In this document: positions 1,741-12,109 of the stretch, piece by piece
How the letters are laid out: each line of letters starts with the position of its first letter
Position numbering within the stretch: position 1 is the first letter of the stretch
Source: Fidelibacterota bacterium
GTDB lineage: Bacteria > Fidelibacterota > Marinisomatia > Marinisomatales > UBA2128
Length of the DNA stretch: 12,109 nucleotides
Reading direction: 5' to 3'
Assembly (NCBI GenBank): GCA_046861645.1
Contig: JBHHUM010000062.1
Span: forward strand, 1-12,109
Notes under the pieces: model-generated
The model's database searches: none
Seen by the model: the letters and a program-made list of their open reading frames with translations, nothing else
Told to the model about the DNA's origin: nothing
Made by a program: the position numbers and the translations under genes

Positions 1741-2733
1741 CTAAAAATATTTGGTATAGCCTAACTCTTCAGCCAATTGCCCACACTGGTTCTCAATAAT
1801 TTCTAAGTCCTTCTCACTGATTTTCCCTCTGTAAACAGTGTTTACATCACGTCGGAGCGGAAACCATCTGTCGCGGAAATGAGAACCAAAAGGTACCCGT
1901 TGGTCCTGCTGAGGAAGCATGTCTTTAACAAAATCCAGTTCAGCAAAATTGCATATTTCGCGTATCATGTCCAGGGGGGAGTTCAGAATCTTTTCCAGTT
2001 GAACAATCAACACACGAATCCCTAATCGGCTCATATCCTCTTGAACTGATTGTATACTGTTGCGCCAATGCTGAATACATAATTCCAAACGCTCCTCCCA
2101 TGATAGAAAATTAGCATAGCGCTTCATATCGCCAGCCTTCCCCATGGCAGCACGCGGGCACTCCACATAAGGATTCCTGGTCACAAGTATGTATTTGGGG
2201 TTACTCTCTCTTAGTAGTCTGTGAAGGAAAGATAGTCTGACAGTATAGACTTGACTCTTGTCCACAAATCTCCCCTGGACGTCCTTGCTGTATCGACCAA
2301 CAATGTATTTAATCACTTTCTTTAAACGGTATTCCAACTCTTCAGTCCAGTCATTTTCTGTTTTACGATAATCACTTAAAAGGGCATTAGAAGCATAGGA
2401 CCAACTCCTAGGAGGCGACAAGGTAGGGTGTGGAGGAGCCTTATGCTTTATTCCTGTGAGTTCAGCTGGTAATATTGCACCCATGACGTTCTGCATTTCG
2501 TCAGCTCCAGACCAGTATCCACAATTACCAGTGACAGACACAACTTCCCTGTTGCGACGAAGAATTCTCGACACTAGTGTAAGTCCCCCACCTTGATTAC
2601 CTAAAAGAAAAATCGGACGATCTATTACTACATCCTTATAGAAAGAGAGATAAAACCGAGGATCAATCATCCAGTTGTTGCGGAGGAAGAGATACCATAT
2701 CTCATTCAGTAACCTCAAGCTATAACCCTCCAT
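1741..2733 (-). CDS. Sulfotransferase-fold protein (Sulfotransfer_3-like) with atypical PAPS-binding motifs
   Basis: 330 aa. DRPIFLLG....G.TLVSRIL (5'-PSB region), RFVDKS, KYILVTRNP (3'-PB region), LEKILNSP....REICNFAEL, and a C-terminal LEIIENQCGQLAEELGY motif all follow bacterial sulfotransferase architecture. Confidence 0.75.
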   Translation of the reverse strand: MEGYSLRLLNEIWYLFLRNNWMIDPRFYLSFYKDVVIDRPIFLLGNQGGGLTLVSRILRRNREVVSVTGNCGYWSGADEMQNVMGAILPAELTGIKHKAPPHPTLSPPRSWSYASNALLSDYRKTENDWTEELEYRLKKVIKYIVGRYSKDVQGRFVDKSQVYTVRLSFLHRLLRESNPKYILVTRNPYVECPRAAMGKAGDMKRYANFLSWEERLELCIQHWRNSIQSVQEDMSRLGIRVLIVQLEKILNSPLDMIREICNFAELDFVKDMLPQQDQRVPFGSHFRDRWFPLRRDVNTVYRGKISEKDLEIIENQCGQLAEELGYTKYF

Positions 2734-2827: not shown

Positions 2828-4957
2828 TCACTTGGCAACAGATACAATTTTCAAGGTAGTTTGAGTCACCTCAAACATCTCCTCAATCGGAATGGGAGAA
2901 GTTTCTCCTTTCTCTACTGCCCTTATAAAGGCTTGCATACACTGTCTATGCCCCTTATCCTGGGATCTCAGTCTCATTCCTGAAAAACGGTGCCAACCAT
3001 AACCCCTTAGCTTGATGAAGTTATCCAGTTGGAGAATTCTACTACCGCAGAATACCTCAAGTCTTTCCTTAGGGAAACTCCTGTGCCCGTTGGCAAGATA
3101 ATGGATGCTCCCGAATGACCCATTTTCAAATTTAAGGGTTGTTGTTATCTTATCTCCACGTACAGAGCCTCCTGTTGGACCAATCTTTACTGCACTTACG
3201 TCCTTAATTGGACTGTGACTAAGATATCTGAGTAAGTCTACAAAATGGCACGCTTCCCCGATGATCCTACCGCCGCCCCTCTCAACATCATGCACCCAGT
3301 GATTATCAGGAACAGCGCCAGCATTCACTGTCATGATGAAGCTCATAGGCTGATGAACGGTTGTCAGTAATTTATTCATCTTTTCGATATGTGGGGCAAA
3401 CCTCCGGTTGAAACCTACCATCAGGAATGGGTTCTCTACCGATTCCAAGCCACTCTTAATCTCAAGCAGTTCCGCAGAAGAAAGTGCCAATGGTTTTTCA
3501 ACGAACACCTTTTTGCCTGCCTTTAGTGCTTGGACAACCAGTTCAGCATGAGTATCATGTTGTGTGGCAATAACCACTGTATTAATCTCACTATCATTCA
3601 TGACTTCTGTACTATCCGACGCAGCCTGTTCAAATCCGAACTTTCTTCCAAGGTGTGCTGAGTTTAAACCTCCAGCAGATACGATAGTTTTGAGTTTCGC
3701 CGATGTGCGTATAAGATTCGGAAGTAGAACTGAAGCAGCATAATTACCCGCTCCGATCATGCCAAGAATGACCTCTCCATCCTTACTAGTGACTGTTGGC
3801 TGGCTGAGTAGCGGTACAATACTTACTTGTTGATCCTTTTCCATATCCATTTTAGAAAATGTAAGAATGATCCCCAAAGAAGACTTGTCATCCATAAGTT
3901 TCTCGTATGCTGTGGTTGCCTCTAAGATTGTATAGCGATGGGAAATGAGGTCTGAAACATCTAATTTTCCTTGACGCATAAGATCAAGGACAGCTTCAAA
4001 GTTCCTTTTTTCAGTCCAACGAACGTAGCCAATTGGATAATCATGACCCTTCAGTTCGTAATTGTCGTCATATCTTCCGGGCCCATATGAACATGATACG
4101 TGAAACTGCAGCTCTTTCTCATAGAAGTCAGAACGTGAAAGTTCAAGGCCAGTAACCCCCACCAGGACAATTCTACCTTTCTTACGGCACATATTAGCCG
4201 CCTGATGAACAGGCTCACTGCTTGCTGTTGTCGCCGCAATGATAACACCATCTGCTCCTCTACCGCCAGTAATATCCGTAACTACCTCTACCGGATTCTC
4301 TCCTCGCGACAGGTCCACAATATCAGCACCAAAACTAGCTGCAATTTTAAGTTTATCTGGATCTACATCAATCGCTACTACGTGACAGCCGTTTGCTCCC
4401 AGCAATTGAACTGTAAGGAGACCAATTAATCCCACACCCACTACAGCGAAAGTTTCCCCTAAGGTCGGCTGTGACAGACGTACACCTTGGAGTGCAATCG
4501 ACCCAAGAACTGTGAAAGCGGCTTCTTCTGCAGATACTCCCTCAGGAATGCGGGTACACAGATTCTGGGGAACAGAGATGACCTCAGCGTGATAACCGTT
4601 TGAGGCCACCCTGTCGCCTACGTCAAACCCTTCCACGCCATCACCAACCGCTATTACTTTACCAGCCTGAGAGTACCCTAAGGGGAGGGGTTGATCCAGC
4701 TTAGTTCGAATTGCCCGAATTGTCGGCGACAATCCGTCTGTTTTTATTTTGTCAAGAACCTGCTTGACCTTATCCGGTTGCTGTCTTGCCTTTTTGATCA
4801 ATCCTGCTTTGCCAAATTCGAGGAGCATTCGCTCGGTGCCGATGGAAATAAGACTGGCCTCGGTCCGGATAAGCAAGTGACCATCCCCCACCTTGGGTTC
4901 GGGGACATCAATAAGTTGAGTTTCTCCGGTTTTCAGGTTTTCCACGACTTGTTTCAT
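2828..4957 (-). CDS. Bi-domain oxidoreductase (N-terminal MDR/alcohol dehydrogenase-like + C-terminal Gfo/Idh/MocA), WeeE-like
   Basis: 709 aa. N-domain: SLISIGTE, PLGYS, GDRVA, Rossmann GVGLIG, SCSYGPGRYD...YVRWTE. C-domain: IGAGNYA, IATQHDTH, VFVEKP, VGFNRRF, GGGRIIGEACHFVD. SD-like AAGGGA upstream of the ATG. Confidence 0.93.
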   Translation of the reverse strand: MKQVVENLKTGETQLIDVPEPKVGDGHLLIRTEASLISIGTERMLLEFGKAGLIKKARQQPDKVKQVLDKIKTDGLSPTIRAIRTKLDQPLPLGYSQAGKVIAVGDGVEGFDVGDRVASNGYHAEVISVPQNLCTRIPEGVSAEEAAFTVLGSIALQGVRLSQPTLGETFAVVGVGLIGLLTVQLLGANGCHVVAIDVDPDKLKIAASFGADIVDLSRGENPVEVVTDITGGRGADGVIIAATTASSEPVHQAANMCRKKGRIVLVGVTGLELSRSDFYEKELQFHVSCSYGPGRYDDNYELKGHDYPIGYVRWTEKRNFEAVLDLMRQGKLDVSDLISHRYTILEATTAYEKLMDDKSSLGIILTFSKMDMEKDQQVSIVPLLSQPTVTSKDGEVILGMIGAGNYAASVLLPNLIRTSAKLKTIVSAGGLNSAHLGRKFGFEQAASDSTEVMNDSEINTVVIATQHDTHAELVVQALKAGKKVFVEKPLALSSAELLEIKSGLESVENPFLMVGFNRRFAPHIEKMNKLLTTVHQPMSFIMTVNAGAVPDNHWVHDVERGGGRIIGEACHFVDLLRYLSHSPIKDVSAVKIGPTGGSVRGDKITTTLKFENGSFGSIHYLANGHRSFPKERLEVFCGSRILQLDNFIKLRGYGWHRFSGMRLRSQDKGHRQCMQAFIRAVEKGETSPIPIEEMFEVTQTTLKIVSVAK

Positions 4958-6061: not shown

Positions 6062-7351
6062 TTAACTTCGGAGCAAGGTTAATGAAAAATGTACCAATCC
6101 CCTCAACAATAAGTATACTGGAGGAATCACTAACATATAGAACGTCGCTTCATACGTCACCAGTTTGTTGAAGTACAAGTCGAAAAACGAAACGGTTAGA
6201 AACGCCATGATTAATCCATAGACAAGTTGTACTCCTATAGATTCTCTGACCCTTAGAGAAATTCCCCACAGAAAGTAGGAGAAAATCCCTAAGAAGAACA
6301 TATATACCCAAGCTAAGTACTTCCCGAGGTACATGTAGAGCATTCCGACAGCCCCGAAAATGTTTGCGGTGTGATGCATATCTGTATGATGCGATACCGG
6401 TACCCAGTTATGAATGATTATATCAATAAGGCTATGATCACCTGTCAAGAATCTATAAAGATTTATTGGCACTGCTATGATCTCCTGAGGACTGTATATG
6501 GGAAACCTGATATCAGTCAATATCTCGCTGAAAGCAATTGGACCTCCAAAAAGATATGTAAAAAAATGATTAAGAAGCCTAACATTAGTCCGGGCAGCAA
6601 AAGTATAATCTAATCCAACTACTAGAAAACCGATGTAATACGTTGCACTGAAAAGGATAAAAACAGTTAGAGAATATAGGAGTATTTTCCTGATGGAAAA
6701 TCGTATTATACCGTTCAACAGACAGAAGAAGTATGCCCCAAGTACAATTCCAAAAATATGATACTTCACTTGCCTGATTAAGATAATCAGGAATACAAGA
6801 ACAAGGAGTATAAGTATGTGTTTCTTTCGATTTAGAAGATAGTCACCCATAAGAAAAATAAAGGACAGCCTACTCAGGTTCTGAATATGGGATAACCACC
6901 CTGTTCCATAGGCTATGGCAAACTCCTCTGAACCAATGTTGACCCACCCTAACTCCCCTATCGAAAGTCGAAAATTGAGCAGACCTGATACAATCGCTAC
7001 GAGAGCGAGAAAGACGAACAGTGGCCTATAGATATCGAATAGTTGGCTTACGTTTTTAGCTGTATTGGCTTCTGGTTCAAAACTGCCATCGGATTTTCTG
7101 AACAGGGGAATAATCAGTTGTCCTCCAACTAGAAAGAAGGTGTAGCTAACTACAATAAATGTAATACTCTGAGGACTCACTGCAAAAAAACCAAACTGCT
7201 TGCCTAACAGATTGATCATCAAGACTACAACGGTATACGGCCAAACCATTACACCAAACGGAGTTACAGCTGTTCCATACCGAGATCGTTCCCAGTAACT
7301 GACTATAAAGCAGAAGGTAACAAGTATAAGTGGCCCTAGGAAGTCGCTCAT
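6062..7351 (-). CDS. wzy: Oligosaccharide repeat-unit polymerase (Wzy-like) integral membrane protein
   Basis: 429 aa with roughly 10-11 hydrophobic segments and a larger loop (YLFGGPIAFS...ANIFGAVG) late in the protein. It lies between glycosyltransferases in a wzx-containing operon. The call rests on topology and context, since Wzy sequences are poorly conserved. Confidence 0.72.
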   Translation of the reverse strand: MSDFLGPLILVTFCFIVSYWERSRYGTAVTPFGVMVWPYTVVVLMINLLGKQFGFFAVSPQSITFIVVSYTFFLVGGQLIIPLFRKSDGSFEPEANTAKNVSQLFDIYRPLFVFLALVAIVSGLLNFRLSIGELGWVNIGSEEFAIAYGTGWLSHIQNLSRLSFIFLMGDYLLNRKKHILILLVLVFLIILIRQVKYHIFGIVLGAYFFCLLNGIIRFSIRKILLYSLTVFILFSATYYIGFLVVGLDYTFAARTNVRLLNHFFTYLFGGPIAFSEILTDIRFPIYSPQEIIAVPINLYRFLTGDHSLIDIIIHNWVPVSHHTDMHHTANIFGAVGMLYMYLGKYLAWVYMFFLGIFSYFLWGISLRVRESIGVQLVYGLIMAFLTVSFFDLYFNKLVTYEATFYMLVIPPVYLLLRGLVHFSLTLLRS

Positions 7352-7382: not shown

Positions 7383-8474
7383 TCATCTTTCATTGAACAA
7401 CTCTTTTGCCTGAAAAAAATCTTCACTTGTTACTGAGTCTTTTCTTGTGGAATAATCTATAAGTAAGCCGGAAAATTTAAGTATTCTTCGTAATGGAACC
7501 CCATGGCGGATACGCAGCATGGGGATAATATAAGCGAGCGAGAATATTCTCCACACTTTCCAGTAGAGAGGGCGATAGTGTTCCTTCAGATCGATAAATC
7601 TATTCAGATGATGAATGAAGGCGCTGGGAAGGGCGTCATCTCTGAACACCGATTCTTTGGCTTGAGACACTTTATGAAAGATTCGGGCCTGTGGCACCGC
7701 CGCCATGACGATACCCTCTCTTTGCATCCGTAAGCTGAACTCATAATCCTCTTCACCCAAGAAGAACTGCTCCGATAGCAATCCATACTTCCTAAAAATA
7801 TCAGCTCGAGCCATAAGAGCGCACCCTGTAATGAAGCTGATTTCACAATGACCGACCGGACACTGATCAGCTTTCTGATTACGATGGTAATAGTTACGGC
7901 TGCCCCACCAGGTAAGTTTTCCACCACAATTCCAGACATTGTCTGGCTCATCGTAATAGCAAATCATCGGGGTCACTACCGCATACTTCTTATTCTCCTC
8001 TATAAAGTTCGAAAGGATCTCGAGACAATTGGCTGCCACCGTAGTATCATTGTTAAGTAAAAAGATTTTATCATAATTTTTGTTAAGTGCATAATGGATA
8101 CCAACATTATTCCCCCCTGCAAAACCTAGATTTTTACTATTCCTTATGAGAACAAAATCCGGCTGCTCGCTTCCATCACTAATTGCCTCTTCTATTTTCC
8201 TGGGGATTTGTGATTGTTCAATCTCAACTATCCTCAGAGTTGTTCTCCATTGCTTACCAGATGAAGGTGGGACAGTTCCCGATCCTTCAGCCCATTTCCT
8301 GATCTTTTTTAAAGAACCATCAGTGGAACCGTTGTCTACAACAATAAAGGTAAAGTCTTTATATGTACTCTTTTTCAGTGATTCCAGGCACTCTATCGTG
8401 TCCCGCCAGCCGTTCCAGTTAAGCAGGATGACCGCCAAGTTCTTTCTTATCTCTTGCTGTCCCAAAACTGTCAT
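7383..8474 (-). CDS. Glycosyltransferase family 2 (GT-A)
   Basis: 363 aa: VILLNWNG..DTIECLESL, VVDNGSTDGS, NLGFAGGNNVG, LLNNDT, ITGCALM, FFLGEEDYEFSLR, IFHK. The start overlaps the wzx stop (TAATG at 8472-8476) and is preceded by AGGAGG. Confidence 0.93.
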   Translation of the reverse strand: MTVLGQQEIRKNLAVILLNWNGWRDTIECLESLKKSTYKDFTFIVVDNGSTDGSLKKIRKWAEGSGTVPPSSGKQWRTTLRIVEIEQSQIPRKIEEAISDGSEQPDFVLIRNSKNLGFAGGNNVGIHYALNKNYDKIFLLNNDTTVAANCLEILSNFIEENKKYAVVTPMICYYDEPDNVWNCGGKLTWWGSRNYYHRNQKADQCPVGHCEISFITGCALMARADIFRKYGLLSEQFFLGEEDYEFSLRMQREGIVMAAVPQARIFHKVSQAKESVFRDDALPSAFIHHLNRFIDLKEHYRPLYWKVWRIFSLAYIIPMLRIRHGVPLRRILKFSGLLIDYSTRKDSVTSEDFFQAKELFNER

Positions 8475-10009
8475 TATCCTCCTGTAGAAGCTGTAGTGAA
8501 TATTTTTGGTAGTATAGCCACCATTCGTTTCTCATCGTCATCCAGCACCAGAAACCAGTTCGTCAGTGCTAATAGAGCCAAGAGTACTGTTCCGCCAACA
8601 AACGCCAAGACAGTATCCAGATCCAGCAAACTCCACAGGTAGAGGAGTAGTCCAAAACCAACCAGTAATGTACCTTCCAACCAAACTTTTCTTCTGCTTA
8701 GATTCCTGATAATCCCGGGATATAGCTTCAGAGTCCATATGAATTGCAGGGAAAAATCAACTGCTACACGGGCAAACCAGGTCCCTGCCGCACCGGCAAT
8801 CTGATACTCCTTCGTCAAGTACCAGAGGAGTATTACATAGACAGGAAACTCCGCCAGATGGAACTTAGCCGGTAGATCCGGTCGTCCAACACCTTGAAGG
8901 AGATTGAAAGGAATATAGGCAATGGAATTTATCAAAATCCCCCCTGCAAAGAATCTCAGGACAATAGATGCCTCTACCGCAAAGCGGTCACCCAACCATA
9001 GACTAAGGATATCTTGAGCATAAATCAGCAACAGCAAAGCGACAACTCCTACCGGCAATAGAATATACTTGATGGAACGGACTACAAGAGCTTCCAACTC
9101 GGCATCATTATTCCTTGAGGAAAGAGCGCTGAACTCCGGAAAGAAAGTACGCATGAGGGCAATAGGTAAAATCCTCATACGGTTCACAGCTTCAAAAGGA
9201 GCAGTATAGAGAGTCACTGCGGTCATTGAAATCATGGAGCCAATCAGAAAACGGTCAAGATATACAAGGACCGGACTTATGACACCTGTTATGGTGATCC
9301 ATCCTCCGTATGTAAGCAGTTTTCGAAGAATAACACGACTAATACGAAACTTTTTTCTCAAGAGAGGGAGCTGTTTGATACAGAGTAACAAATAACACAG
9401 TGAAGCGGTGACCCTGGTAATAACGATGAACAAAACTACCGTTGAAACAGACCATCCTAAAGGTAGAGAGAGCGCTGGAAAAACGATACTGATTATACTC
9501 ACTGGTACTTGAATGGTATTTACCAGATCAAAACGCTGGAGTGCTCCCAAGACGCCTCTGAGACTGGTGGAAGCGAGCATAAATGGAAGAGAGAGGGCGA
9601 CGTAAAAGAAAGCTCTTTCTGCTTCAGAAAAATATTCTGGCTTAATCTTTAAAAGAGAACCTGCAAGATGTGGAGCAACAATTGTAATGATTCCAGCTGC
9701 TGCCAGACCTGTGATAAACGCCATGGTCACTGCAGTCCAAATCAACTGGGGTAGATTACCATCCTGCTTGGGATCATGGAGTTCAGCGACATATTTCATA
9801 GTCGCTTTGGCGAGACCAAAATCGAGTAATGTGAGATATCCCAGAATAATCCAGGCAATTGAGAGAATGCCGAAACCGTCGTCACCCAGTCCTTTTACTG
9901 CTAGGGGAATACAGACAATACCGGCCACGATAGGAGCCAGCATACCAAGAAAATTCAGCAGGACATTTTTCGCCAACATCTGCCCAGAGGTAGATCTGGC
10001 TTCGCTCAT
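8474..10009 (-). CDS. wzx: Wzx polysaccharide flippase (MOP/MATE-like superfamily)
   Basis: 511 aa with about 12-14 TM segments. LAKNVLLN, LGDDGFG, LDFGL..A..KYVA, YLDRFLIG, VTLY..P, FFPEFS and LQGVGRPD are characteristic Wzx motifs. The start overlaps the upstream stop (ATGA at 10006-10009). Confidence 0.93.
   Translation of the reverse strand: MSEARSTSGQMLAKNVLLNFLGMLAPIVAGIVCIPLAVKGLGDDGFGILSIAWIILGYLTLLDFGLAKATMKYVAELHDPKQDGNLPQLIWTAVTMAFITGLAAAGIITIVAPHLAGSLLKIKPEYFSEAERAFFYVALSLPFMLASTSLRGVLGALQRFDLVNTIQVPVSIISIVFPALSLPLGWSVSTVVLFIVITRVTASLCYLLLCIKQLPLLRKKFRISRVILRKLLTYGGWITITGVISPVLVYLDRFLIGSMISMTAVTLYTAPFEAVNRMRILPIALMRTFFPEFSALSSRNNDAELEALVVRSIKYILLPVGVVALLLLIYAQDILSLWLGDRFAVEASIVLRFFAGGILINSIAYIPFNLLQGVGRPDLPAKFHLAEFPVYVILLWYLTKEYQIAGAAGTWFARVAVDFSLQFIWTLKLYPGIIRNLSRRKVWLEGTLLVGFGLLLYLWSLLDLDTVLAFVGGTVLLALLALTNWFLVLDDDEKRMVAILPKIFTTASTGG
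8477..8483 (-). promoter_or_regulatory. Shine-Dalgarno-like sequence for the GT2 gene, inside the wzx 3' end
   Basis: The minus strand reads AGGAGGA-TA-ATG. Strong anti-SD complement, but the spacing is unusually short; it coincides with the TAATG stop/start overlap. Confidence 0.45.
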
Positions 10010-11376
10010 TTACTTGACTGAATAGTGTTAGATAGATCTAAGAAAGCAGGCTTAAAAATAATGTAAATTGAAGTGAGTATAATACTAAAGAAACTGTAAA
10101 ATATCACGATAATAGCCCGTTTGGGTTTGAATTTCTTGTCCGGTACTACCGCCCGATCTAAAACTTGCACCGTGGGTGTATCCTTGGCCTCTTGAATTTT
10201 AGCCTCCTCAAATTGCTGAGTCAGGAATGTAAAAAGAGTATTCTGAATTTCTACTTCCCGGGTGAGCCTGGCAAGTTCAACTCCCAAGTAGGGAACCTCA
10301 GAGAAACCAGGAAACAAGTTATTTCCATCAGTACCCTTCTCCATTTCAACAAGTTTAAACTCTAAACTAGTTATTTCTCTCTTCAACATATCAATATCAG
10401 GATGGTCAGGGTTAAGAACCTCAGTCATTACTTCAAGTTTGACTTCGTTGGCCATAATCTGTGCCTTTATTTCAGCTGCAGCCTCGATAGCTGCAGCAGT
10501 CTGTTCCGGTAGGGCAATCATTTTATGAGTTTCCTGAAAAATCTGAAGACTATCTTCAGATTTCTTTAAATCTATGATATTCTGTCTATAACGTTCTTCA
10601 ATAAACATCCTTTGAAACCGAGCTTTCTCAGTTTTTAAGCTCTTATTCATAGCATCAAGATTACTTAGGAAAAAGTTAGTTATATCTGTTACCATCTGTT
10701 TCACTGAATCTTCCTCATCTGTAGAGGCTAGCCATCCAGTCTGTACATCAACAGATACTAGAATAGTTCCTTCATCCTCGGTTTCTATAATAATACTTTC
10801 AGAAAGCTTTTTTCTAGCTTCTTCATAGTTATCCACATCATAATACTCTAACAATCTGAATTTTCTGATAACATCATCCATCATAGTACGACTTTTGAGA
10901 ATAGCAATAAGTCGCAGACTTTCCGAATCTGTGCCAGTAAATCCTAATCCTCCCAAAGGCAAACTTGTAAGTCCACTTAGCAGACCAAGATCACTCTGCT
11001 CTTGGGGTGGTAGGAGTGCAGCAGTAGCACGATATGTCTTAGGCAAAATCAGGGATACAATAACCGCTAAAACTGATATCAGGAGAAAATTAGTAATAAT
11101 TAGTTTTCGTTCACTGAATAGAACCCGTAAGAACAAAAGTAAGTTTGATTTCTCTAAAATTCGAGATTCTTCAATTTTAAATAATTCAGCTTCCTCTCCT
11201 TTTTGCCCAACTAACCCATACCGCTTTAAATCCGCAATCCTGTTCCTCATCGTCTTCTCTGTCATTCCATTAGCTACAGCGACTTTCTCTCGCTCTGCAC
11301 GGTCGTCCAAGATCTTTGGATGTTTCTTCACCAACTCAAGTATCTTCTTCTCGTGGTCCGTAAGAGTCTGCATCAT
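10006..11376 (-). CDS. wzz: Polysaccharide copolymerase / chain-length determinant (Wzz/GumC-like, no kinase domain) with an N-terminal HTH extension
   Basis: 456 aa. Amphipathic helix NLLLFLRVLFSERK, TM1 (about aa 92-111) followed by PKTYRATAALLPP, then ILKSR, a long coiled-coil periplasmic region with NPDHPDI, GNVR-like EAKDTPTVQVLDRAVVPDKKFKPKR, TM2 and a short C-tail. No Walker motifs or Tyr cluster. Confidence 0.88.
   Translation of the reverse strand: MMQTLTDHEKKILELVKKHPKILDDRAEREKVAVANGMTEKTMRNRIADLKRYGLVGQKGEEAELFKIEESRILEKSNLLLFLRVLFSERKLIITNFLLISVLAVIVSLILPKTYRATAALLPPQEQSDLGLLSGLTSLPLGGLGFTGTDSESLRLIAILKSRTMMDDVIRKFRLLEYYDVDNYEEARKKLSESIIIETEDEGTILVSVDVQTGWLASTDEEDSVKQMVTDITNFFLSNLDAMNKSLKTEKARFQRMFIEERYRQNIIDLKKSEDSLQIFQETHKMIALPEQTAAAIEAAAEIKAQIMANEVKLEVMTEVLNPDHPDIDMLKREITSLEFKLVEMEKGTDGNNLFPGFSEVPYLGVELARLTREVEIQNTLFTFLTQQFEEAKIQEAKDTPTVQVLDRAVVPDKKFKPKRAIIVIFYSFFSIILTSIYIIFKPAFLDLSNTIQSSK
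11209..11376 (-). other. Putative winged helix-turn-helix domain (aa 1-56 of the Wzz-like protein)
   Basis: LTDHEKKILELVKKHP-(KILDDRAE)-REKVAVANGMTEKTMRNRIADLKRYGLV fits the AsnC/HTH_24/HTH_11-type pattern L...d.kIL.lL..nP......elA...G.s..tv..ri..L...Gli. Recognised by eye only. Confidence 0.72.
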
Positions 11377-11377
11377 A

Positions 11378-12109
11378 CTACTGTAATGTAGCCAAGTATG
11401 TAAGATAAACGGTTAGGAGTGCTGTACCAATTTGCAGTAGAGAACTATCCCCAAAAATTGAACTCTTAAGATTGCGGGGCACTACGATTACATCACCCCT
11501 TCTCACTAATGCATCCTGACCTCGTTCTCTGCTGCCATCTAAATGTCGAATTAGGGCACCATCCGGGTTTCCTTCGGTGGTATTCCCCCCTGCCAGATTA
11601 ATATAGTCACCCGCGGTGAAACCTGGGAAGAACTGGAAGCTTCCCGGTACCTGTACAAAACCATTCACTGAAACCCCTCTCTCGCGAAGAATATCGAGCG
11701 TATCACCAGGCTTCAATACCGTGGAAGCAAATCGTTCCGGGGGTATATTAAGATATTCCTCTTTGTTGTTTTTGACTCGTGTAATAGTAACACTTTCTAA
11801 ATCGGCACTCTCACGGAATTGAGCTTTCCTCCAGAGAAAGTGTTCTAACGTTTCCCCTTGGGCTATAATATCGTATCCTTTCCCCGAAACAGCACCCCTG
11901 ATAACCACACCCTCTTTTTCGACATTTCCAAAGGGCACTATTACTTGGTCACCCTCTACAAAAGTTGGATTATGATTGAGATCACCATTGTTGATGAATT
12001 GCAAGAAATCCACTTTTCTAACCGTACCGGCATGAGTGCGAACCGTGATATCGAATTCTCTGGCTAATTGATGAAAACCGCCAGCAAGTTCTACTAAGAC
12101 ATCCAGTCT
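11378..12109 (-). CDS. SLBB-domain polysaccharide export protein (Wza/KpsD-like OPX); 5' end outside the window
   Basis: The frame stays open upstream of the track's GTG at 12013 to the window edge (RLDVLVELAGGFHQLAREFDITVRTHAGTVRKVDF...). Repeated SLBB units (ELAGG...NPTFVEGDQVIVP; VIRGAV...LKPGDTL; VSVNGFVQVPG...YINLAGG...VRRGDVIVVP) and a C-terminal hydrophobic helix (LLQIGTALLTVYLTYLA). Confidence 0.88.
   Translation of the reverse strand, partial: RLDVLVELAGGFHQLAREFDITVRTHAGTVRKVDFLQFINNGDLNHNPTFVEGDQVIVPFGNVEKEGVVIRGAVSGKGYDIIAQGETLEHFLWRKAQFRESADLESVTITRVKNNKEEYLNIPPERFASTVLKPGDTLDILRERGVSVNGFVQVPGSFQFFPGFTAGDYINLAGGNTTEGNPDGALIRHLDGSRERGQDALVRRGDVIVVPRNLKSSIFGDSSLLQIGTALLTVYLTYLATLQ

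Follow-up and report, generated by a model that had tools for sequence, protein, structure and literature searches.

We describe a predicted membrane protein in which a helix-turn-helix (HTH) domain precedes a polysaccharide co-polymerase (PCP) of the Wzz type in a single open reading frame (ORF). The gene, denoted HTH-PCP, lies at positions 10006–11376 on the minus strand of a 12,109-nt stretch of DNA from a Fidelibacterota bacterium (the window, which comprises the entire contig JBHHUM010000062.1), and ORF calling and translation give a product of 456 aa. The fusion architecture is real; within one order of uncultured marine bacteria it is long established and maintained by strong selection. 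Its sequence suggests that the chromosome may be directly linked to the assembly of sugar chains at the membrane. With a probability of about one half, we read HTH-PCP as a membrane-tethered, sequence-reading DNA binder that would connect the assembly complex to transcription. An earlier note on this DNA, made from its letters alone, had placed the gene at the correct coordinates and proposed a winged HTH (wHTH) in front of a Wzz-like protein. The parts of the protein, including the two predicted transmembrane segments (TM1 and TM2), map to the window as follows:

10006–11376, minus strand: whole ORF, with HTH, linker, TM1, periplasmic PCP body and TM2 (Pfam and AlphaFold2, AF2)
11209–11367, minus strand: HTH domain, aa 4–56 (profile search, Pfam, AF2 and fold search)
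11113–11208, minus strand: variable linker, aa 57–88, differing in length between homologues and predicted to be a flexible tether between HTH and TM1 (alignment and AF2)
11047–11109, minus strand: TM1, aa 90–110 (AF2 helix, within the Pfam Wzz match)
10861–11142, minus strand: Pfam Wzz match, aa 79–172
10276–10860, minus strand: periplasmic PCP body, aa 173–367, predicted to form long antiparallel helices (AF2 and weak NCBIfam matches)
10051–10275, minus strand: GNVR domain, aa 368–442, TM2 included (Pfam and AF2)
10054–10116, minus strand: TM2, aa 421–441 (AF2)

The N-terminal domain is best described, from profiles and predicted structure, as a tri-helical HTH resembling those of Lrp, LexA and Csa3. 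By the Pfam boundary about 78 residues stand ahead of the Wzz domain, close to the 75 or so counted in the earlier note. We aligned the window N-terminus with 23 homologue N-terminal segments (alignment A2). Scanned singly, 21 of the 24 segments matched HTH_24 at E ≤ 1 (best E-value 2.7e-7), and other Pfam matches among them were HTH_11 (19/24), LexA_DNA_bind (18/24) and HrcA_DNA-bdg (14/24). Two related fusion ORFs scored 21.6 and 22.3 bits against HTH_24, for which the cut-off is 21.9. Searched against PDB sequences, the A2 profile matched the wHTH of Csa3 (E 4.4e-5), GerE (5e-4), the LexA DNA-binding domain across its full extent (1e-3), LrpA (7e-3) and other Lrp/AsnC proteins.

The AF2 model computed with A2 (predicted local distance difference test score, pLDDT, 83) places helices at residues 7–18, 20–23, 26–35 and 40–53, followed by 58–76, and displays the three-helix HTH fold. 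It superimposes on fold matches of the Lrp/AsnC type with a root mean square deviation (rmsd) of 1.6–2.1 Å over 49–54 residues. Foldseek returned no match at E ≤ 1e-3 for this N-terminal model; its first row was the Lrp-like structure 1i1g (rmsd of 1.8 Å over 52 residues, probability 0.96), and HTH-type DNA-binding domains from transcription factors filled nearly all of the best 50 rows of the fold search. Neither AF2 model contains a strand within aa 1–113, so that a beta wing is not predicted. Accordingly, the earlier reading of aa 4–56 as a wHTH stands for the three helices, on the Pfam matches of relatives, the PDB profile matches, the AF2 model and the leading rows of the fold search, whereas the wing is unsupported. 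The third helix, with the residues E40-K41-T42-x-R44-N45-R46-I47, is the presumed recognition helix.

As judged by its family matches, the remainder of the chain, residues 79–442, is an ordinary kinase-less Wzz+GNVR co-polymerase, in line with the Wzz-like protein proposed from the letters alone. Pfam recognizes the Wzz domain with 37.5 bits (cut-off 25.5, E 2.9e-9; 42 bits in the genome scan, in which it was the sole Wzz-domain gene) and the GNVR domain with 45.1 bits (cut-off 27.7, E 9.4e-12). The PCP subfamily is not assignable because the NCBIfam models for Wzc, KpsE, Wzz and EpsF all match far below their cut-offs. The protein is not of the PCP-2a (Wzc) type: the Wzc equivalog model gave 47.9 bits against a cut-off of 1068, and a C-terminal bacterial tyrosine kinase (BY-kinase) domain is absent, the chain stopping 15 residues after TM2 and Pfam showing no kinase family in it. 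Nor did any protein of the window's genome (94% complete) exceed the TIGR01007 cut-off for BY-kinases, the best score being 49 bits compared with the required 108.

The AF2 model of the whole protein, built on a 29-sequence alignment (pLDDT 76.8), comprises the HTH (residues 7–52), TM1 (90–110), periplasmic helices at 219–283, 291–320, 326–347 and 361–397, and a TM2 helix spanning 420–455. The prediction thus shows the two transmembrane helices around a long helical periplasmic domain that characterize PCPs; the stretch between HTH and TM1, aa 59–77, has a pLDDT below 50. PCPs assemble into rings and have both termini in the cytoplasm, and because of this family topology the HTH should be cytoplasmic, on a tether of about 30 residues.

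Comparison of 70 full-length fusions (the window and 69 further loci, see below) shows far tighter constraint on the HTH than on the PCP body. Mean pairwise identity is 59% for the HTH (aa 4–56), 16% for the linker, 30% for TM1 plus Wzz, 31% for the periplasmic body and 40% for GNVR. The residues E9, P20, R29, A33, E40, K41, T42, R44, N45, R46 and I47 are invariant in all 70 proteins, among them the four of the recognition helix (T42, R44, N45, R46) whose conservation the earlier note had proposed to check; L43 is kept in 68, and the helix pattern EKT-RNRI in every one. Two genomes of the same genus share just 32% identity with the window in the PCP body, and their HTH is still detected at E ~1e-29. 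From these alignments the PCP body appears to behave as a serotype-variable component and the HTH as a part with a fixed partner. Given an invariant recognition helix next to a PCP body and a glycosyltransferase set that differ even within a genus, the target should be something conserved, for example a fixed DNA site, rather than locus-specific polymer chemistry.

The architecture recurs widely within one lineage. A word-index search returned 524 homologues, mostly of ~448 aa at 96–100% coverage; those with organism names were Marinimicrobia or Fidelibacterota metagenome-assembled genomes (MAGs), and close homologues carry the public names 'GumC family' or 'KpsE/RkpR'. The N-terminal motif is present in 24 of 29 aligned homologues, the other five being shorter (374–397 aa). 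Across 1.84 billion representative sequences, HMMER with the A2 profile yielded 217 matches at E ≤ 1e-3 and 103 at E ≤ 1e-10. Wherever a strong match forms a single stretch the domain lies near residue 1, and such proteins of at least 380 aa run on into TM1 and the PCP. In a phylum sample of 201 genomes, strong matches (E < 1e-20) occurred in 37, all in open frames of ~400–600 aa: 36 belong to the window's order (G000 included) and one, G141, to another order. At E ≤ 0.001 a match was seen in 36 of the 63 other genomes of the window's order and in none of the 13 of family f3, whose genomes are about 1 Mb in size. Of 80 named loci from GTDB species genomes, 69 carry a complete fusion ORF with a length of at least 380 aa, nearly all of them Marinimicrobia/Fidelibacterota; five are cut by a contig end and six have a short archaeal form. 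A closed 2.14-Mb chromosome and some single-cell assemblies are among the sources of these loci. Among 24 divergent fusions of ~400 aa and one of 560 aa, Pfam found GNVR in 25/25 and Wzz in 24/25.

These data bear directly on the explanation that the extension is an artefact, whether of a wrongly called start, of a separate small gene or of a chimeric assembly; translation of the PCP would then begin after the HTH. Such a view could draw on the five shorter aligned homologues, which begin past the HTH, on the many short HTH-only 'proteins' in metagenome collections and on the lack of an evident Shine-Dalgarno-like sequence ahead of the HTH-PCP ATG. However, the frame is unbroken in the 69 complete ORFs, which come from independent assemblies with the closed chromosome among them, and at the protein level the HTH is better conserved than the rest of the ORF. 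In addition, the window translation contains no methionine from M43 up to M164/M165, so that none lies between HTH and TM1, as the earlier note had pointed out. Many of the short matches are contig-end fragments, frameshifted tails or adapter-derived tails, and several that are long enough extend into the linker and TM1. We therefore regard an artefact as extremely improbable, and the real, continuous fusion posited in the earlier note is borne out. The same note had named homologues without the extension as evidence that would count against it. They occur in family f12 of the window's order only, where the orthologous PCP occupies frames of 361–385 aa in 6/6 genomes (G174, G181, G212, G217, G221 and G225) and no HTH match was found anywhere in the two genomes sampled; f12 does not make the fusion an artefact.

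Weak A2 matches in other orders (E ~1e-4, in frames of ~450 aa) were considered as possible divergent fusions. Five such regions were fetched and none showed a fusion: two held unrelated proteins and three had no ORF of at least 300 aa in the fetched stretch. G141 is the only true fusion outside the window's order in the phylum sample. Three fusion contigs are labelled as Candidatus Scalindua rubra (L015), a gammaproteobacterial MAG (L059) and an alphaproteobacterial MAG (L066); they are short (2.4–9 kb), carry Marinimicrobia-like genes and are probably mis-binned. Separately, a number of unrelated long proteins (P0122, of 764 aa, P0205, P0208, P0212, P0216, P0217 and others) contain 5–11 tandem matches to the second half of the HTH profile, with the repeat form ...EIAxxLGxSxxTVxxxIxxLRxxGxL...; these are multi-HTH repeat proteins.

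The six short loci reveal that the HTH+TM unit can, by its sequence, stand alone without a PCP. They lie on contigs labelled as archaeal MAGs (mostly Poseidoniales; also Euryarchaeota and Methanobacteriota) and encode a protein of 101–103 aa at L037:810–1115, L046:5791–6096, L054:5211–5516, L071:5771–6076, L077:5627–5938 and L093:5359–5664. This protein runs from the HTH through a polar linker to a hydrophobic helix that forms the C-terminal end, as in a tail-anchored protein. The archaeal HTH is 48–58% identical to that of the window, shares the SEKTLRNRI helix and carries SEKTLRNRIGDL[KR]RYGLL. A conserved polytopic membrane protein of ~214 aa without Pfam family precedes it in 6/6 loci. In L054, the sole archaeal locus annotated with Pfam, the neighbours are eIF-6, a carboxyltransferase, a B12-binding subunit, MeaB and an Ogt-like gene, and no polysaccharide genes were found. 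Since the HTH+TM protein stands alone in archaeal MAGs, the partner of its helix would exist in both domains of life, and a nucleic acid fits this more easily than a protein of the bacterial export machine. Likewise, because the L054 context is one of archaeal housekeeping without polysaccharide genes, an archaeal protein with the same helix speaks for a partner as universal as DNA rather than for a bacterium-specific protein. The distribution suggests, as far as sequence labels can, that a membrane-tethered HTH is shared across domains between bacteria and archaeal-labelled MAGs.

For HTH-PCP as a tethered regulator, these features would combine in a simple manner. The HTH would bind DNA from the membrane as in transmembrane transcription regulators (TTRs), and a PCP ring would leave several tethered HTHs hanging under the assembly complex, where neighbouring copies could pair on one DNA site. 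The most likely use would be to make transcription of a conserved target depend on whether the Wzx/Wzy/PCP/Wza machine is present or on its state.

Several observations weigh against such a regulator. Small HTH domains also serve protein-protein contacts, and the window's own aa 1–78 gave no Pfam HTH match, only noise at E > 0.1; at E ≤ 10 the families listed were DUF6945, ssDNA_TraI_N and RPC3_helical. The natural HTH-less f12 clade shows the HTH to be dispensable for PCP function as such. The promoter of the window's locus is not available in this genome because the contig ends inside wza. A Wza-like gene stands directly upstream of HTH-PCP in most bacterial loci. Class-A loci have the order ybbR-like, tsaD, a ~700-aa gene, ugd, rmlC, rmlB, wza and HTH-PCP, with short gaps or overlaps; in class-B loci a divergent serS and a ~270-nt intergenic region are followed by a Wza of 550–580 aa and an HTH-PCP of ~400 aa. 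Alignment of 12 class-B intergenic regions and k-mer enrichment in the noncoding DNA of 71 loci revealed no operator common to all locus types, and the window's own genome yielded no such site. The sole enriched GC-rich noncoding 8-mer was GCCCGGGC, present in 22/71 loci, absent after shuffling and 5' of wza in every instance. In seven class-C loci (L060:6814, L064:6419, L065:2008, L067:7024, L069:6826, L074:6826 and L088:110) it sits ~50 nt within the called wza ORF, and the four of these copies that were translated (L060, L065, L067 and L088) encode the end of the Wza signal peptide, G-Y/V-A-R-A-Q. The octamer is truly noncoding in just 15 class-B loci, no noncoding copy was found in class-A loci, and all four copies in the window's own genome lie within ORFs. 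Given the signal-peptide coding in class C, the lack of noncoding copies in class A and the ORF-internal copies in the window's genome, we reject GCCCGGGC as a general operator and keep it as a lead for class B only; the class-C copies in particular warn that the octamer need not be a binding site wherever it occurs.

Two noncoding regions deserve description in their own right. In the 12 class-B intergenic regions TGCCCGGGC is invariant, ~190 nt 5' of wza and often after GGGC-N4-5; more conserved blocks come after it, among them complementary CTATCGA and TCGATAG on either side of GCGCCCAGTTTA. This conserved leader of ~190 nt, specific to class B (L068:5984–6268, with equivalents in L055, L072, L078–L081, L085–L087, L089 and L092) could be an RNA structure or an operator; an Rfam search of five loci returned nothing relevant. 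In class A the gap of 50–77 nt between the ~700-aa ORF and ugd (for example L038:3969–4029) contains TTTG, ~19 nt and TA-nn-TTT, a pattern that resembles a sigma-A promoter of the Bacteroidota or Fibrobacterota–Chlorobiota–Bacteroidota (FCB) type. No palindrome was found in this gap, which is likely the promoter for ugd-rmlC-rmlB-wza-HTH-PCP.

The absence of a universal operator would also fit a domain that is not a DNA binder at all and serves as a protein-protein docking or oligomerisation module. It would then either bring in a partner from the cytoplasm (the initiating glycosyltransferase, a regulator or RNA polymerase, for instance) or make the PCP ring more stable on its cytoplasmic face, and would substitute for the regulatory input that BY-kinases provide to PCP-2 proteins. 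Since the genome has no BY-kinase above the family cut-off and a single Wzz-domain gene, some other cytoplasmic input to the PCP is plausible. Lrp-like HTH folds are, moreover, not always transcription factors, as illustrated by the sirohaem decarboxylase AhbA/B among the fold matches. However, the invariant K41, T42, R44, N45 and R46 form a basic/polar face of the third helix in a DNA-reading pattern, and the best sequence matches are DNA-binding domains. The archaeal tail-anchored protein keeps this helix, and L054 has neither PCP nor polysaccharide genes, so a partner from the bacterial machinery is unlikely. We consider a docking module doubtful. The missing operator across locus types is also compatible with an HTH that binds DNA with little or no specificity and holds the nucleoid, or the locus under transcription, at the site of export, as a transertion-like anchor rather than a regulator. 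With many HTH copies in each PCP ring, avidity could make up for low affinity, and a sensor domain is lacking altogether from the minimal HTH+TM form of the archaeal loci. An unspecific anchor nevertheless seems quite improbable, as invariant polar T42 and N45 beside arginines are more typical of base-specific reading, which the DNA-binding regulator favoured here would perform.

HTH-PCP belongs to two known kinds of protein, the kinase-less PCPs and the transmembrane HTH proteins (TTRs by architecture). It resembles PCPs of the Wzz, KpsE and GumC types in its Wzz and GNVR domains, two transmembrane helices and long helical periplasmic body, and in the position of its gene between wza and wzx in a glycosyltransferase-rich locus. 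PCP N-termini are usually short; here, in contrast, the ~78 cytoplasmic N-terminal residues form a conserved HTH plus tether. With the TTRs ToxR, TcpP, CadC, TfoS and ChiS it has in common a cytoplasmic N-terminal domain of DNA-binding type, a transmembrane segment and a periplasmic domain in one chain, but its periplasmic part serves as a structural element of a machine for polymer assembly rather than as a ligand sensor. ToxR and CadC use an OmpR-type winged helix, whereas the present domain is Lrp/LexA/Csa3-like and gives no Trans_reg_C match even at E ≤ 10. The proteins of the Lrp/AsnC family (feast/famine regulatory proteins, FFRP) carry RAM, a ligand-binding and oligomerisation domain; HTH-PCP has no RAM domain, and its HTH leads into the linker and TM1. 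It further differs from the Lrp/AsnC HTH in an extra short helix (aa 20–23), a longer connection between H1 and H2 and the attachment to a membrane protein. The C-terminal wHTH of the CRISPR-associated transcription factor Csa3 was the best PDB profile match and has a near-identical recognition-helix string, SEKTLINKIAELKKFGIL; however, the alignment covers only the second half of the domain (profile positions 30–58), HTH-PCP has no CARF domain and the genomic contexts are unrelated.

A survey of 50,302 TTRs in 9,673 bacterial and archaeal genomes defines them by a DNA-binding-type domain plus at least one transmembrane segment (PMC10269533), an architecture that HTH-PCP displays. HTH_24 occurs in 601 of the 50,302 surveyed proteins (PMC10269533, supplement file 4); Wzz and GNVR are absent from the table of non-DNA-binding domains (file 5), and the main text does not name Marinimicrobia. 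Full-text literature searches, which left out most subscription journals, found no published HTH-PCP or HTH-Wzz fusion, in line with the earlier note, whose author knew of none. Within these searches the combination of PCP and TTR was not found described.

Regulation of Wzx/Wzy-dependent polysaccharides is usually ascribed to BY-kinases, phosphatases, two-component systems or antiterminators of the NusG/RfaH type. A co-polymerase that itself bears a domain of DNA-binding type would join the assembly machine to gene expression within a single protein. The invariant reading helix beside a fast-evolving PCP body leads to the prediction of one conserved target across hypervariable glycan loci. Marinimicrobia are abundant in the ocean, and to our knowledge they have no genetics and almost no characterised regulators. 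For biochemistry, the tail-anchored homologue from archaeal MAGs provides a minimal form, and it suggests that plankton living side by side have exchanged a membrane-tethered HTH across domains. Taken further, the HTH-TM unit might be a mobile, self-sufficient membrane DNA reader common to Marinisomatales bacteria and MAGs labelled as marine group II archaea. Grafted onto the PCP in the bacteria, it would produce a ring of DNA-binding heads beneath each polysaccharide assembly and export complex and, with it, direct mechanical or occupancy feedback on transcription of a conserved regulon, or a physical coupling of chromosome and export sites. We consider this extension unlikely; if true, it would constitute a surface-glycan signalling route without a kinase or two-component system.

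By its Pfam matches the whole window is a single co-directional polysaccharide locus, with Wza- and Wzx-type genes and glycosyltransferases around HTH-PCP in agreement with the earlier description. Besides the Wza-like gene, HTH-PCP and the flippase, it contains genes for a GT2 glycosyltransferase, a DUF6337 protein, a GT4 glycosyltransferase, a 709-aa ADH_zinc_N+GFO/IDH/MocA fusion, a sulfotransferase, a 411-aa ORF and a second GT4. The features that adjoin HTH-PCP or are discussed below are:

11374–11380, minus strand: junction TAG-T-ATG, consisting of the wza stop, a 1-nt spacer and the HTH-PCP start (sequence)
11378–12109, minus strand: upstream Wza-like outer-membrane polysaccharide export gene (SLBB), 5'-open and cut by the contig end (ORF call, Pfam and NCBIfam)
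8474–10009, minus strand: downstream Wzx-type flippase, Polysacc_synt (ORF call and Pfam)
6062–7351, minus strand: DUF6337 protein, 429 aa, E 8.8e-74 (Pfam)
2828–4957, minus strand: 709-aa ADH_zinc_N+GFO/IDH/MocA fusion (Pfam)
1741–2733, minus strand: sulfotransferase (Pfam)

The HTH-PCP gene is tightly packed at both ends, because only 1 nt separates it from wza and its TGA overlaps the flippase ATG as ATGA. At the 5' end the sequence reads TAG-T-ATG-ATG, with the first ATG 1 nt past the stop of the Wza/SLBB gene as the earlier note had it, and this spacing suggests translational coupling between wza and HTH-PCP. The DUF6337 protein, encoded between GT2 and GT4, occupies the place expected for a Wzy-type polymerase. 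The ADH_zinc_N+GFO/IDH/MocA fusion recurs with 54–62% identity in the related loci L026, L027 and L049, and the sulfotransferase recurs in L027; the product of the locus may be a sulfated polysaccharide.

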